A program made the translations under genes and the position numbers. From an uncultured Candidatus Saccharibacteria bacterium (GTDB taxonomy: Bacteria; Patescibacteriota; Saccharimonadia; Saccharimonadales; EFPC-124): a stretch of 64,000 nt of DNA. The stretch covers positions 11,072-75,071 of the forward strand of contig CAYOML010000003.1 in NCBI GenBank assembly GCA_964405095.1. Direction: 5' to 3'. Below, one piece after another: positions 1,397 to 53,071 of the stretch; within the stretch, counting starts at the first letter, position 1, and every line of letters starts with the position of its first letter. The notes under the pieces were generated by a model. That model made no database searches. It saw nothing but the letters and a program-made list of their open reading frames with translations, and was not told the origin of the DNA.

Positions 1397-1552
1397 TTAA
1401 AAACTTGATTCTCAAAACCTAATACTTATGGCCGGGTCCTGCCGCCTGGTCCGCCCCTAAAGATTTTTTTATGGAAATACATAAAAAAACTTTGGGGCAG
1501 CCCCGCCAGGCGTCACCCCTTTGTTTATGGGTTTTGAGAATCAAGTTTTTAA
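1397..1552 (+). repeat. family C element, long copy (C1): ~156-nt imperfect palindrome
   Basis: Perfect 23-bp arms ttaaaaacttgattctcaaaacc / ggttttgagaatcaagtttttaa enclose a 110-nt GC-rich imperfect hairpin (CGCCTGG/CCAGGCG, CCCC..GGGG, T7/A7). Confidence 0.8.
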
Positions 1553-2908: not shown

Positions 2909-2940
2909 TCTTTGCCCATACCGCTGGTCCAACATCTTTA

Positions 2941-3058
2941 TTATCTCAGGCCGCCGCCATCGACAAAAGTCGATGCTCGGCATGCGGGAAGTATAGCCTT
3001 CGCTAACCAAGGGTGTTTAGATGCAGCTGACGTAAGTTTCATAGCACTCATTAACAAG
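2941..3058 (+). repeat. family A element, copy A1 (left arm missing)
   Basis: Core ctcaggccgccgccatcgacaaaagtcgatgctcggcatgcgggaagtatagccttcg. The right flank gctaaccaagggtgtttagatgcagctgacgtaagttt is homologous to 9388..9425. Confidence 0.85.
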
Positions 3059-3113
3059 TAGCCACGGGTAGTTAATCGGCTCGCGGGACTGGCAGACGGG
3101 TCTATCCATGTTC

Positions 3114-4598: not shown

Positions 4599-4713
4599 TC
4601 TAAACCACCCTTACCTATTACTTCTACGGCACATTCCGCGCGGGGCAGCCTTTGGCTGCTCCGGCTGCACTCGGCATCCAGACCGTAGAAGTAATAGGTA
4701 AGGGTGGTTTAGA
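4599..4713 (+). repeat. family B element, copy B1
   Basis: 31-bp perfect arms (tctaaaccacccttacctattacttctacgg / ccgtagaagtaataggtaagggtggtttaga) around a 53-nt core, cacattccgcgcggggcagcctttggctgctccggctgcactcggcatccaga. The core is near-identical to the reverse complement of 26933..26989. Confidence 0.85.
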
Positions 4714-7717: not shown

Positions 7718-9271
7718 ATGACACTACAAGACACCCTGACCTATCAACCGGTCGAACTAGCCTTTGGCACATCTGGCCTGCGAGCGTTAGTGACCGACAT
7801 GACCGATCTGGAATGCTACATCAACGGGATTGGTTTCTTGCGTTTTTTGGAATCGGCAGATGGGCTGGAACCTGGCAATATTGTGTATCTCGCCGGTGAC
7901 TTAAGGCAAAGTACGCCGCGGATTTTGGCGGCCATGCAAAAAGCGATTAGTGACGCTGGTTACCGCACGGTGTATTGTGGGCTGATTCCCACACCGGCCC
8001 TTGCCTACATTGCCTTACAAAAACACTCGCCATGCATCATGGTAACCGGCAGTCACATCCCGGAAGACCGCAACGGAATTAAATTTTACAAGCGCGCCGG
8101 TGAAGTACTGAAAGAAGACGAGCTAGGTATTAAAGAGGCTGTGGCTACTTTCCGAGAGGCTGTGTATTCGAGCGACGCCAAGGTTAGTGATTTTGGCTCA
8201 AGTGGTGATCTTTTACAACCCCCGGCCTTGCCAACCGAAGACGGCGAGGCGCTGGCTATGTATCTCAAACACTATACCGACGTATTTAATGCTAAAACTC
8301 TGGCCGGCGTCAAAGTAGTGTTTTATCAGCACTCATCGGTTGGCCGTGATTCGCTGTCTGGTCTACTACAAGACCTTGGTGCCGAGGTAATACTCACCGG
8401 CCGGTCCGATAAATTTGTACCGATCGACAGTGAAAACGTAACACCCGACGATCAAGCCTACTTTAAGGTTCTCGCTCGCCAACACCCCGATGCCTTTGCG
8501 ATTGTTTCGACCGATGGTGACAGTGACCGGCCATTTGTGGTCGACGAGCAAGGCGTCTTTCACCGCGGCGATGTGCTTGGGGCGATTAACGCCGATTGGA
8601 TGAAGGCCGATTTTGCGGCTTATCCAGTTAGCTCCAGCGATGCAGTCGACCACCATCTGAGTGATCGTAAAGTTGCTTGGCAACATACCCGGATTGGCTC
8701 GCCATATGTTATATCAGTGATGCAAGAAGCCGTGCTGGCTGGCCACGAGCGTGTGGTTGGTTGGGAGGTTAATGGCGGGCTGCTACTGGGTAGCGATATA
8801 GAAATGCGCCATCATAAAATCCTGAAGGCTCTGCCTACCCGCGATGCGATTCTGCCGATTATTGGCGCGCTAGTCATGGCTCATAGTAACAAACAATCTA
8901 TGTCCCAACTATTTGGCAGTCTGGAGCAGCGCTTTACCCAGGCCGGTTTGATTGATAATTTCTCCGGCGATGTCTATAAGTTGATTGCCGCCCGCTTTGC
9001 AGCCGATACATCGGATGTGCGCCGAGATCTGGGGCAGTACTTTAGTTCAGCCCGTGGCTTCGGCGAGATCACCCAGATTAACTCTTTGGACGGAGTACGC
9101 ATCTACTTTGATAACGGCGATATTGCTCACTTGCGCCAGTCCAACAATGCCCCCCAACTACGTATGTACAGTGTGGCTAACACGCAGGAGCGCGCCGACG
9201 CGATTGTGTCGCTGGCGATAGCCGAAGAGGGTGGAATTTTCCGCGAGTTGCAGGGGGCTGTGAGTGCGTAG
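7718..9271 (+). CDS. alpha-D-phosphohexomutase family protein (second paralog)
   Basis: 517 aa. VTGSHIPEDRNGIKF active-site loop; STDGDSDRP metal loop. Confidence 0.8.
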   Translation: MTLQDTLTYQPVELAFGTSGLRALVTDMTDLECYINGIGFLRFLESADGLEPGNIVYLAGDLRQSTPRILAAMQKAISDAGYRTVYCGLIPTPALAYIALQKHSPCIMVTGSHIPEDRNGIKFYKRAGEVLKEDELGIKEAVATFREAVYSSDAKVSDFGSSGDLLQPPALPTEDGEALAMYLKHYTDVFNAKTLAGVKVVFYQHSSVGRDSLSGLLQDLGAEVILTGRSDKFVPIDSENVTPDDQAYFKVLARQHPDAFAIVSTDGDSDRPFVVDEQGVFHRGDVLGAINADWMKADFAAYPVSSSDAVDHHLSDRKVAWQHTRIGSPYVISVMQEAVLAGHERVVGWEVNGGLLLGSDIEMRHHKILKALPTRDAILPIIGALVMAHSNKQSMSQLFGSLEQRFTQAGLIDNFSGDVYKLIAARFAADTSDVRRDLGQYFSSARGFGEITQINSLDGVRIYFDNGDIAHLRQSNNAPQLRMYSVANTQERADAIVSLAIAEEGGIFRELQGAVSA

Positions 9272-9306: not shown

Positions 9307-9443
9307 CTGCAATTAAGCACCCTTAGTTATCTCAGGCGGCCAACATCGACAAAAGTCGATGCTTGGCATGCGGGAAGCATAGCCTTTGCTAACTAAGGGT
9401 GTTTAATTGCAGCTGACGTAAGTTTGTGGCACTCGTTGCCAAG
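9307..9443 (+). repeat. family A element, copy A2 (complete)
   Basis: 23-nt arms ctgcaattaagcacccttagtta / taactaagggtgtttaattgcag (one G-T pair) enclose a 60-nt core. The right flank is shared with A1. Confidence 0.85.
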
Positions 9444-9495
9444 CGACCTAAACTCAGCTTCATTTGCAAACGGGTACTTCCTAAATACAGCGCTA

Positions 9496-9594
9496 GCCGC
9501 GAGTGGCGCGAAGGAAGGGGTGCCCCAGTCGCGCGCAGCCAGTACCCTGGCGAGCACGTCTGGGGAAGGAAGCCTAAGCGACGAGGCTCGCGGT
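9496..9594 (+). repeat. family D element, copy D1
   Basis: Closing stem GCCGCGAG/CTCGCGGT. Internal pairings CCCCAG/CTGGGG and GCCAG-tacc-CTGGC. Blocks ggggtgcccc..gcgcgcagcc..ggcgagca..ggggaaggaa..ctaagcgacgagg are shared with 42002..42143. Confidence 0.8.
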
Positions 9595-9689
9595 ATGGCA
9601 GACTAGAGGGTGTGCTGCTGTATGTACTGCCGCAGGCAGTTCATGGGCTCGCGGGGTTGCAAGGGGGAGCGAAATTCAGAGCAAATGAA

Positions 9690-9716
9690 TTAGCACTCTT
9701 GCATTGACAGTGCTAA
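9690..9716 (+). promoter_or_regulatory. CIRCE operator (HrcA binding site) of the groES-groEL operon
   Basis: TTAGCACTC-ttgcattga-CAGTGCTAA, against the consensus TTAGCACTC-N9-GAGTGCTAA. It overlaps the groES promoter. Confidence 0.85.
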
Positions 9717-11707: not shown

Positions 11708-11753
11708 AGCACAATATTAAAAGACCTCGCACGAGGTCTTTTAATATTGTGCT
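11708..11753 (+). terminator. intrinsic terminator-like hairpin after groEL
   Basis: ~21-bp inverted repeat agcacaatattaaaagacctcg / cgaggtcttttaatattgtgct, followed by tatt. Confidence 0.6.
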
Positions 11754-26897: not shown

Positions 26898-27024
26898 TTG
26901 ACTGAACCACCCCCAGCTTATTACCGCAACGGTCTGGATGCCGAGTGCAGCCGGAGCAGCCCATCAAGGGCTGCCCCGTGCGGAATGTGCCGTTGAAGTA
27001 ATAAGCTGGGGGTGGTTCAGTCAA
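26898..27024 (-). repeat. family B element, copy B2 (inverted relative to B1)
   Basis: 35-bp arms (ttgactgaaccacccccagcttattaccgcaacgg / ccgttgaagtaataagctgggggtggttcagtcaa, two non-Watson-Crick positions). The 57-nt core is the reverse complement of the B1 core, apart from one substitution and a longer hairpin tip. Confidence 0.85.
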
Positions 27025-37905: not shown

Positions 37906-38949
37906 GTGGCACGAACTAAAACAGCAACCACCACACCACCGGCGGATGATCTTGACGAGTCGGCAGAAGCCGATGACGATACAACTTCTCTAGACGGCGA
38001 CCTACCAACTGACGATGCGACAACTACTGATGATGCCGTCGAACCAAATCCCGACGAATTCGAAGAAGAGGAAGAGTGGAAAGAAGACGAGGCTGTAGCC
38101 TCGAGCTACTTAGATGACATTTCTGACGACTCGGTGCGTTTGTACCTGCGCGAAATTGGCAAAATTCCGCTTTTGACGCCTGTCGAAGAATTGGCGCTGG
38201 CTCAGCGCGTCCGCCAAGGTGACAAAGACGCCAAAGATAAGATGGCCGAGGCCAACATGCGTTTAGTAGTGAGTATCGCCAAGCGTTACAGTGGTCGCGG
38301 CTTGGATTTTTTGGATCTGATCCAGGAAGGTAACACCGGTCTGCTACGCGCTGTCGAAAAATTTGATCCCGACAAGGGCTTTAAATTCAGTACCTACGCG
38401 ACCTGGTGGATCCGTCAGGCCATTACCCGTGCGATTGCCGACCAAGCCCGTACCATCCGTATTCCGGTGCACATGGTAGAAACCATCAACAAGCTGCTGC
38501 GCACCCAGCGCCGCATGACGCAGGAGCTCAACCGCGAGCCGTCAATCGAAGAACTGGCGGCCGAAATGGAGATGGAACCAGAGAAGATCGAATACGTCAT
38601 GAAGATCAAACAGGACATTACCTCGCTTGACGCAAATGTGCGCGATGATGATGACGACTCGGTGCTCGGCGATTTTATCGAGGACGAAGAAGCCCAAAGC
38701 CCTGAAGAATCGGCCGCTATTCAGCTTTTGAAGGAGCAAGTTAAAGAAATGCTCAGCGTTCTGACTGAACGCGAGCAAAAAATCCTGAAAATGCGCTTTG
38801 GTCTGGAAGACGGCAAAAGCCACACGCTCGAGGAAGTTGGCCAGGAATTTAGTGTAACCCGCGAGCGCATTCGACAGATTGAAGCCAAAGCACTTAGCAA
38901 ACTGCGCAAGCACAAAGACGCTAAGAAACTTTACGAATACTTGCAGTAA
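37906..38949 (+). CDS. rpoD: RNA polymerase sigma factor, sigma-70 primary type
   Basis: 347 aa with a GTG start after AGGAGG. Acidic N-terminus; region 2 [31 protein letters not shown]; region 4 [18 protein letters not shown]. Confidence 0.92.
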
Positions 38950-39597: not shown

Positions 39598-40884
39598 GTG
39601 AGTGAACATATTGAGGTGGCTGGTACCATTGCAAATACGGTGGGCGATACTTCGTCACCCGAAACAGCCGGTGATGAACTTGCTATGCGCAGAAAAGCCC
39701 GTAAACGTGGCGGGCCGGCGGTTAAAGCCCGGGTCGCCAGAGCACCTCGAAAGACTACAGGGAAAAAAGCTGGCGAGCGCGCACTTTTGAGCGTTGTCGG
39801 GGGTGAAGAAGGGTTGAGCCTGGATGAGATTCTAGCAGAAGTTGACGAATTTGGGTTTGATGCAGACGAACCTGAAGACAATGTACTAGACAGGCTAGGG
39901 GCTAGCAGTGATGAAGAGGGTGAAGACTTGTCGGACTTGGCCGATCTGGATGACGAAAGAGCCGATGCCTCGGTTACTGACCCTGTGCGCGCCTACATTA
40001 TCCGGGCCGGTAGGGTATCACTACTGGATGCTGCTCAAGAAGTTGACTTATCCAAGCGCATAGAAGCTGGCTTGTATGCGACAGAACTTTTACGTAGTTT
40101 TAATGAAGACGGCATTCCGCTTAACGGTTATACAGTCAAGGAACTTGAGTTTGTAGCTAAAGATGGCAGCCGCGCCAAAGATCACATGCTGGAAGCCAAC
40201 CTACGCCTTGTTATGAGTATTGCTAAACGTTACGTTCGCCACGGCGCGCATATGCAATTTTTGGATCTCATCCAAGAAGGTAACATTGGTATGGTTCGTG
40301 CTGTAGAAAAATTTAATTACAAACGGGGCTACAAGTTCAGCACGTACGCCACCTGGTGGATCCGCCAGGCTATCACTCGGGCGATTGGCGACCAGGCCCG
40401 TACTATTCGCATTCCGTTACATATGGTTGAGAATCTCAATCGGATGAGTACCGTTCAACGCGCTCTAACACATAGTCTTGGGCATGAACCAAGTGATCTC
40501 GAACTGGCCGAAGCATTAGATATAGATGAGAAGACCTTGGCAAAATGGCTCTCTTATGAGCGAGAGCCCGTCTCGCTTGACACGCCAGTGGGGGATGACA
40601 AAGAAAGCAGTCTCGGCAATTTTGTTAGCGATGATGATGCCGTTGACCCAGAAGAAGCTGCGGGGTATCAGCTGCAGGCTGCACAAATAGCAGAAGCACT
40701 TAATATTTTAACCGGCAGAGAACAGCTAGTGATGCGTTATCGCCTTGGGTTTTACGGTCGAGAGTATAGCCTCCAAGAGATTGCCCAGGAACTTGAGCTG
40801 AGTCGCGAGCGCATTCGTCAGATAGAGACAAAGGCTAAGGATAAACTTAGAGACTCGCCCCTTCTCGCCTCGTTTAGAAGCTAG
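39598..40884 (+). CDS. second sigma-70 family sigma factor (primary-like, regions 1.2-4 present)
   Basis: 428 aa. DPVRAYI (region 1.2); [42 protein letters not shown]; region 4 [18 protein letters not shown]. The GTG start is uncertain. Confidence 0.85.
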
Positions 40885-52751: not shown

Positions 52752-52828
52752 AAAAACTCTCGTTAATTGATCTTTAATTCAAGTGGTGACTATAGCTGAT
52801 TTAGTTAGATCTGTAAAGAGGTGTGAAA

Positions 52829-52934
52829 CCGAAACGAGACATAAGCGATTGTCTCAGGCCGCCGACATCGACAAAAGTCGATGCTCGGCATGCGGGAAGC
52901 ATAGCCTTCGTCAATCACTTATGTCTCGTTTCGG
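52829..52934 (+). repeat. family A element, copy A3 (complete)
   Basis: 23-nt arms ccgaaacgagacataagcgattg / caatcacttatgtctcgtttcgg (one C-A mismatch) enclose a 60-nt core that is near-identical to A1 and A2. Confidence 0.85.
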
Positions 52935-53071
52935 CTGGCGCAAACACTATGCCAGTATGGAGAACTCTAGTACCAAACTGTTAGAATTGTGGATAACTTT
53001 CTTGCAGAGGTTAACTGCTTATGCTACAGTAAACCCAAAGTCTACTAAAAAACAAAAAGGCTAAAAACACC

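Follow-up and report, generated by a model that had tools for sequence, protein, structure and literature searches.

A hairpin of about 106 nt with a nearly invariant tip occurs three times between genes of an uncultivated soil Saccharimonadales bacterium (Saccharibacteria/TM7, Patescibacteria; CPR), within the 64-kb stretch of DNA analysed here (the window). We tentatively interpret these copies (A1, A2, and A3; family A) as a small, lineage-restricted, hairpin-type family of intergenic repeats that would be copied as whole hairpins, with the tip as the part that is read, most likely via single-stranded DNA. In kind, the family would belong to the group that includes MITEs, REPINs, and bcr1, and it is most likely new. 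We observe directly the fold and its covariation, a stem that is free beneath a conserved tip, the dispersal over all types of intergenic region, and the existence of sister families.

Copies and fold of family A

All three copies lie in the same orientation, as an earlier note on this DNA had it, on the + strand, and a 34-nt pattern from the core has three matches in the window against zero expected. A1 is flanked on either side by Mur-ligase paralogues, A2 by a phosphomannomutase (PMM) gene on one side and groES on the other, and A3, as the note had also placed it, by rpsT (-) and a DHH-like gene (+). The cores (59–60 nt) differ pairwise at three to six of 60 positions (A1 versus A3, 3; A2 versus A3, 5; A1 versus A2, 6). 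In A2 and A3, 23-nt arms with one mismatch per copy enclose exactly 60 nt; this geometry and the near-invariance of the core had both been claimed and are reproduced here. A1 had been called incomplete. The description holds for its left arm, which is degenerate and has no significant similarity to the left arm of A2, but not for its right arm and 3' flank, which are homologous to those of A2 (Table 1).

Table 1 Features of families A, B, and D, neighbouring promoters, and unitig ends (window coordinates unless a contig is named)
Feature	Position	Strand	Remarks
A1 left-arm position, degenerate	2921..2943	+	12/23 positions still pair with the right arm (manual count from pair table)
A1 core (60 nt)	2944..3003	+	private changes 14A>C (pair broken), 49C>T (G.T)
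A1 right arm	3004..3026	+	20/23 identical to A2 right arm
A1 3' tail (32 nt, CAAG end)	3027..3058	+	homologous to A2 tail
A2 left arm (23 nt)	9307..9329	+	pairs with 9390-9412, single G.T mismatch
A2 core (60 nt)	9330..9389	+	differs from A3 at core positions 9, 13, 35, 58, 60
A2 right arm (23 nt)	9390..9412	+	partner of 9307-9329
A2 3' tail (31 nt, CAAG end), common to A1	9413..9443	+	local alignment with 3027-3058, p<0.0005
A3 left arm (23 nt)	52829..52851	+	pairs with 52912-52934, single C.A mismatch
A3 core (60 nt)	52852..52911	+	core alone folds with z about -4.7 to -4.9
A3 closing stem P0	52856-52859/52904-52907	+	
A3 hairpin P1	52861-52889	+	12 bp, one bulge, AAAA loop
A3 hairpin P2	52890-52902	+	4 bp, GGGAA loop
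A3 right arm (23 nt)	52912..52934	+	followed by CTGGCGCAA; 7/9 positions match A1/A2 CTGACGTAA
rpsT promoter, predicted	52789-52817	-	TTTACA-17-TATAGT, 10/12, strong sigma-70-type
Promoter-like site	52958-52987	+	TGGAGA-18-TAGAAT, with TG
B1	26898..27024	+	35-bp arms, 57-nt GC-rich core
B2	4599..4713	-	31-bp perfect arms, 53-nt core; arm carries TCTAAAC(C)ACCCTT
D1	L046 7734-7836	-	contig Ga0136846_1215021, another Saccharimonadales genome
D2	L046 18937-19043	+	contig Ga0136846_1215021
Further hairpin (156 nt)	1397-1552		23-bp perfect outer arms, 110-nt imperfect inner palindrome; single window copy
Logan unitig end L075	2962		in A1 core
Logan unitig end L001	4628/4684		in B2
Logan unitig end L074	52895		in A3 core
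Logan unitig end L073	1460		in 1397-1552

A2 and A3 are predicted to fold into a 23-bp stem capped by a three-way junction, in which P0, P1, and P2 form a Y. The hairpins have z of -10 to -12.5 versus shuffles, and either strand is predicted to adopt the same Y under RNA as well as DNA parameters. Of the five core differences between A2 and A3, two compensate each other within P1 (positions 13 and 35; G13>A and C35>U in A2) and three, at 9, 58, and 60, are unpaired; no pair is broken. Both the compensatory change and the C49>U change of A1, which yields a G-U pair in P2, had been pointed out before and are borne out. In the arms, 12 of the 23 pairs are changed on both sides, making 13 with the pair in P1, and 90% of cells are paired. 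None of 500 shuffles reaches this level, and slid controls are 22–40% paired.

Divergence between A2 and A3 is concentrated in the stem. The core differs at 5/60 positions versus 12/23 for the arm (Fisher p = 4e-5), the reverse of the conservation in a MITE, as the earlier note had recognised, and only 3 of the 22 unpaired tip nucleotides differ (manual count). The fold of family A is under constraint; the sequence of the tip is conserved and that of the stem is free. These inferences come from three copies, one of them degenerate, each statistic being one or two comparisons.

Arms, flanks, and sister families

The arms had been described as unrelated between copies, and a core landing in the loops of pre-existing hairpins had been offered as one alternative. 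Our comparisons do not bear out the first description and speak against the second. With the core setting the register, the left arms of A2 and A3 are identical at 9 positions and differ by 9 transitions and 5 transversions. Their identity is weak (9/23, p = 0.09), but 18 of 23 positions retain the purine/pyrimidine class (p = 0.003 by shuffling; 0.005 versus every 23-mer in the window). Between the right arms, 11–12 of 23 positions match, and CTGRCGYAA directly follows the right arm in both copies. For A1 and A2, homology covers the right arm (20/23) and 31–32 nt of 3' flank (p<0.0005). Because register, length, and purine/pyrimidine class are kept between A2 and A3, and the arms of the sister families are homologous at different loci (below), the arms travel with the core.

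A second block common to A1 and A2, GGCTCGCGG(G/T)A(C)TGGCAGAC, lies downstream of their tails (3077–3097 and 9584–9603); therefore, the duplication that relates them may have exceeded the hairpin. A motif of 13–14 nt, TCTAAAC(C)ACCCTT, is common to the arms of A1 and A2 and a family B arm (p = 0.001–0.008 per test). Trees for core and arm disagree, the A1 core being nearest to A3 (3 differences) and the A1 arm nearest to A2 (3 versus 11 differences; p about 0.08–0.10). Judged from these alignments, the histories of core and arm may differ, and cores could move or be converted independently of arms. No empty copy of any arm is present in the window, and no direct repeat flanking the family A core is visible by eye. 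A 3' tail as a feature of the whole class is supported for A1/A2 and weakly for D1/D2 (p = 0.018), and unsupported for A2/A3 and B1/B2.

Two further families share the design of family A: a conserved GC-rich tip on long, near-perfect arms that are homologous between copies and far more diverged than the tip. Family B has two copies in the window. Its arms match at 18 of 31 positions ungapped (p = 2e-4), and each difference is compensated on the opposite arm. The TAA stop codon of a FemAB-like gene (4709–4711) lies within the arm of B2, which fits placement of a whole hairpin at the gene end. Family D was found by a long-inverted-repeat scan of all loci analysed and consists of two copies on one contig of another genome. 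Its 47-nt cores are 91% identical and unrelated to the A core. They contain a compensatory pair (CCAGC-GUAA-GCUGG versus CCGGC-GCAA-GCCGG) alongside GNRA loops (GCAA, GUAA) kept on one strand. The arms of family D are perfect, 27–28 bp long, and about 54% identical (15/28, p = 0.002); as in family B, every change is compensated. The copies adjoin glmS/PMM and follow a glycosyltransferase gene; D1 runs antisense to the genes on either side. Core identity between copies is about 91–94% in B and D (manual counts, consistent with blastn identities). Since the arms of both families are homologous between loci and their changes compensated, the whole hairpin is the inherited unit.

In total, at least five tip-bearing hairpins of the A/B design occur in the window, and about 570 kb of other Saccharimonadales DNA yielded no further short repeat family of the same design. 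The copies occupy co-directional, convergent, and divergent intergenic regions. A1, A2, B1, B2, and D2 start 0–35 nt after the stop codon of a co-oriented gene, and five of six informative copies are co-oriented with the upstream gene. The further hairpin at 1397–1552, present once in the window, is located where tsaD and a Mur ligase gene diverge.

Plainer hairpins are also present. One at the 3' end of tsaD (277–356) has 21-nt arms with two mismatches and a 38-nt GC-rich loop. After groEL, a 22-bp perfect palindrome with a 2-nt loop (11,708–11,753) has a short GC stem and complementary A/T tracts; it is a canonical bidirectional intrinsic terminator. Long palindromes with loops of 0–6 nt are common in related contigs (e.g., L004 7125–7163, after PMM). 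The plain long palindromes of the window genome are ordinary bidirectional terminators, unlike the arms of family A.

Likely nature of the element

Two observations bear on whether the element acts as DNA or RNA. Of 190 arm pairs, 186 are Watson-Crick, with one G.T on the reference strand and two A.C. A3 sits 11 nt upstream of the predicted rpsT -35 element and 23 nt upstream of a promoter-like site on the + strand; it lies between two predicted divergent promoters and is therefore probably outside both mRNAs. Taken together, the nearly pure Watson-Crick arms and the position of A3 lean toward a DNA-level element of the MITE/REPIN/bcr1 type. Strand cues conflict, as the earlier note had observed, with the arm mismatches of A2 and A3 favouring opposite strands. 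Its view that A3 is not a simple terminator also stands, a T-run being absent.

We infer action at the DNA level, a trans-acting factor, and mobility itself. The copied unit would be the whole hairpin including its arms, not the 60-nt core alone. The element would work as a single-stranded fold: once the strands separate, pairing of the arms would give a stem of 23 bp or more, displaying the 60-nt tip as a Y-shaped junction of three stems (P0, P1, and P2). The acting molecule would most likely be single-stranded DNA arising in replication, repair, or uptake; a transcript is the less likely candidate. Sequence specificity would reside in the tip, recognised by a trans-acting factor responsible for copying or moving the element, and the stem would be a mere clamp that may drift freely provided both sides change together. 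Several points count against this explanation: no target-site duplication is seen by eye, the scanned ORFs contain no mobility gene, the co-orientation of five of six copies fits a 3'-UTR RNA, family D has GNRA loops on one strand, the identity of the A2 and A3 arms has p = 0.09, and the trees conflict.

Known elements resemble family A in part. The bcr1 element of the Bacillus cereus group (MITE-like, about 155 bp) is likewise dispersed and intergenic, with a long stem, two independent stem-loops, and compensatory changes that preserve a cruciform-like fold (Delihas 2011, PMC3184786). Family A matches this fold, with P0, P1, and P2 on a 23-bp stem and 13 pairs changed on both sides. However, bcr1 is known to be transcribed and terminates in 5-bp direct repeats, whereas family A has no visible flanking duplication, shares no sequence similarity with bcr1, and has arms that diverge far more than the tip. 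REPINs, the RAYT-mobilised doublets of REP sequences, are also intergenic hairpins of about 100 nt, in which compensatory changes preserving long hairpins are common; they are thought to act as single-stranded DNA, and their excised intermediate is asymmetric and tailed (PMC3116915). In a REPIN the ends are invariant (REP 16-mers) and the middle is variable, whereas in family A the middle is invariant and the ends are variable. REP sequences are defined by invariant palindrome ends of 20–40 bp with a GTAG or CGTC tag and a variable spacer (PMC3733652, PMC3116915); in family A no GTAG adjoins the stem; on the minus strand, A1 and A2 have CGTC at a distance of 2 nt from it, where A3 has CGCC. 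Classical MITEs (Correia, ERIC) are, like family A, small, non-coding, intergenic, and multi-copy, with terminal inverted repeats and a stem-loop fold. The inverted repeats of A2 and A3 are complementary at 22 of 23 positions, but they are not conserved between copies (9–11/23, versus 55/60 in the core), and no target-site duplication is seen by eye. Thus, family A differs from bcr1, REPINs, and MITEs in that its centre is constrained and its ends are free.

Hairpin ends read by HUH enzymes, such as the T-shaped parvovirus ITR with its D sequence and the stem-loop origins of circular single-stranded DNA replicons, resemble family A in the long stem, the two capping hairpins, and, for A1 and A2, the tail. 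What matters for function in these origins and ends is the folded tip; the sequence of the stem is comparatively free. Unlike them, family A comes without a visible Rep/HUH gene or paired replicon ends, its copies standing singly among housekeeping genes; the analogy may serve as a lead to how the element works, and only as that.

A structured RNA is a serious rival to the DNA-level reading, although we regard it as possible rather than likely. The Y-shaped tip would then be a small functional RNA or a cis-acting 3'-UTR or leader module, and the stem of at least 23 bp a sequence-free double-stranded handle; the stem could be an RNase III processing stem, like those of rRNA precursors, that releases or stabilises the tip. 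RNase III needs roughly two helical turns, and 23 bp, the minimum over all arms, is at or above that length. The covariation in arms and P1, the conserved unpaired tip nucleotides, the compensatory pair and GNRA tetraloops of family D, and the position of A1, A2, B1, B2, and D2 just after co-oriented genes all suit an RNA. Natural RNA helices usually hold several percent G.U, yet G.U is almost absent from the 190 arm pairs, and the arm mismatches would be G-U on opposite strands in A2 and A3. The setting of A3 between divergent promoters and of D1 antisense to both neighbours, the absence of both a T-run terminator and a conserved promoter, the lack of an Rfam family (generic miRNA-precursor matches fall far below gathering scores), and the lack of anything comparable in 655 kb of relatives also argue against it.

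Mobility of the core alone appears quite unlikely. Here, the 60-nt core would insert at the apex of existing long hairpins, in the way IS1397 enters REP loops, or its insertion would create an inverted target duplication of fixed length, and the arms would be local. Insertion of IS1397 or ISKpn1 into loops would likewise leave a conserved insert between arms of local origin, and targeting of palindromic units by IS1397 is cited in PMC3116915. In keeping with such a process, the arms of A3 have no recognisable identity to those of A1 and A2 while the cores are only 3–5 nt apart, the A1 core is closer to A3 and its arm closer to A2, long perfect hairpins with 0–6 nt loops are common after genes in the lineage, and the A1/A2 arm motif recurs in family B arms around a different core. 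However, IS1397 and ISKpn1 are full insertion sequences with a transposase and 3–4 bp duplications, whereas the arms of family A are inherited with the core. Arms of pre-existing hairpins would be local, unrelated, and of arbitrary length; those of A2 and A3 agree in length (23), register, and purine/pyrimidine class (18/23, p~0.003), and those of B1/B2 and D1/D2 are homologous at unrelated loci. In addition, the window contains no empty arm copy, no direct repeat is visible by eye at the core edges, and its plain hairpins are bidirectional terminators with A/T tracts and a short GC stem, unlike the arms.

We consider it very unlikely that the copies have no function and are leftovers of segmental duplication, their palindromes perfected by template switching (quasi-palindrome correction) and their cores by gene conversion. 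A1 and A2 do look like an evenly decaying local duplication (core 6/60, arm 3/23, tail about 5/31) and have the second block downstream in common, and templated correction is expected to give purely Watson-Crick arms. In contrast, between A2 and A3 the unpaired tip positions are far better kept than the arms, two genomes show this design with unrelated cores, and A3 lies 43 kb from A2 in an unrelated context. A segment of 60 bp is also short as a gene-conversion substrate.

A broader extension of the preferred reading, of whole hairpins copied through single-stranded DNA, appears unlikely. Saccharimonadales would carry an undescribed class of "apex-read" hairpins, comprising families A, B, and D and perhaps the hairpin at 1397–1552, in which a short, GC-rich, structured tip alone is sequence-specific and the long perfect stem is regenerated or corrected from one arm at each copying via a single-stranded intermediate. 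This could proceed by fold-back copying, or through recognition by an HUH-type or other structure-specific enzyme, and would explain how arms can diverge several-fold faster than the tip while always remaining perfect.

CPR/Saccharibacteria have small genomes, thought to contain few repeats and little mobile DNA. In the window, most of the larger intergenic gaps contain a long hairpin whose tip is conserved and structured. Should the design hold genome-wide, it would represent a repeat class whose recognition logic is reversed relative to MITEs and REPINs, with the tip read and the stem free, and would point to a novel structure-specific enzyme or RNA-binding factor in an uncultivated lineage. 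If there are only three copies of a decaying duplication, the consequence is small.

Searches and genomic neighbourhood

At gathering thresholds, Rfam 15 identifies a single tRNA in the whole window and assigns family A to no known family, a check that the earlier note had proposed. In an E-value scan, A3 matches mir-210 at 26 bits (gathering score 50) as a generic long hairpin; B1, D2, and the region between A2 and groES give only sub-threshold matches to miRNA precursors. The classes covered include hammerhead, twister, pistol, hatchet, HDV-like, Y RNA, 6S, and SRP, and the suggestion that the element might be self-cleaving finds no support in the Rfam models.

The exact core pattern has no match in genome, metagenome, and viral contig collections, nor do patterns from the second half of the A, B, and D cores in viral contigs. 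Genome contigs anchored on the phosphoglucomutase-like gene yielded no relative, and predicted proteins reading through a copy (four core open reading frames concatenated) no candidate. Searches of 68 related loci and Logan contigs (655 kb) with blastn (word 7) and a covariance model, R1, recovered the three window copies only; with filters off, R1 adds only family B and plain hairpins in the window. Matches by blastn in L049 and L046 lie within coding sequence and are attributed to chance, as is a Rhizobium plasmid match (79%, E = 0.1) inside a sugar-binding-protein gene. Plasmid and phage collections contain no relative of the family A core.

The full hairpins coincide with no terminator-like site, and no T-run follows the right arms. 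No target-site duplication is visible by eye at the outer ends of the A2, A3, and B1 arms; B2 has ACTTG near both ends, out of register. Transposase, HUH, and recombinase genes are absent from L046 and from the 10 window ORFs scanned (of about 65), the latter also being free of a RAYT gene, and no reverse transcriptase, transposase, or recombinase gene is adjacent.

Several other candidates were rejected. A retron non-coding RNA does not agree with the downstream genes, which are a Mur ligase paralogue, groES, and the DHH-like gene. An inverton does not agree with the single orientation of all three A cores relative to the shared 3' flank, and a 60-bp segment is very short for recombinase synapsis. 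CAAG/GAAC, as in an IS91-type target, is found 31 nt past the hairpin in A1/A2 and A3; B and D deviate, and we treat it as chance. A minus-strand promoter inside the element reaches only 8–9/12. A Shine-Dalgarno-like motif with a mini-ORF (MQLT) is present in A1 and A2 and missing from A3, and a TAGATCT motif 5' of A2 and A3 is, in A3, the -35 region of the rpsT promoter.

The window has a G+C content of 50% and densely packed genes. Its PMM (7718–9271) is 100% identical to a protein from Logan run SRR9179563; the named relatives of this protein belong to Candidatus Saccharimonadales. From the same run, four Logan unitigs that were assembled independently are identical to the window, and one contains the complete A2; the sequence is therefore no assembly artefact. 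Other unitigs break off inside the A1 and A3 cores, where these share 34 identical bases (core positions 15–48), and further unitigs end inside the long palindromes of B2 and 1397–1552. Because these features end unitigs, short-read assemblies of the window genome are fragmented there, and such palindromes, by ending de Bruijn-graph unitigs, would contribute to the fragmentation of CPR assemblies.

The nearest relatives of the PMM are about 80% identical (P0002 and P0003; in P0003 a different gene abuts PMM), and those of the DHH-like gene at most 75%. These distances, the smallest available, are too great for an empty-site comparison. In the closest relative with a long contig (JGI sample 3300041967; PMM 81% identical), the PMM–groES spacer is 417 nt, and the contig also encodes a UvrD-like helicase that carries Hint/intein domains.

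About 250 nt of GC-rich DNA (9440–9690) separate A2 from the groES operator; they have no Rfam match and a folding z of only -1.5. The operator itself (9690–9716) is CIRCE-like, TTAGCACTC-N9-CAGTGCTAA, located upstream of groES (9771), where an HrcA site is expected. Elsewhere in the window, the neighbouring genes 37,906–38,949 and 39,598–40,884 have stretches that are 71–79% identical (38,303–38,489/40,253–40,439 and 38,827–38,891/40,771–40,835); they resemble tandem paralogues and, at a guess from sequence, may encode sigma-70-type factors.
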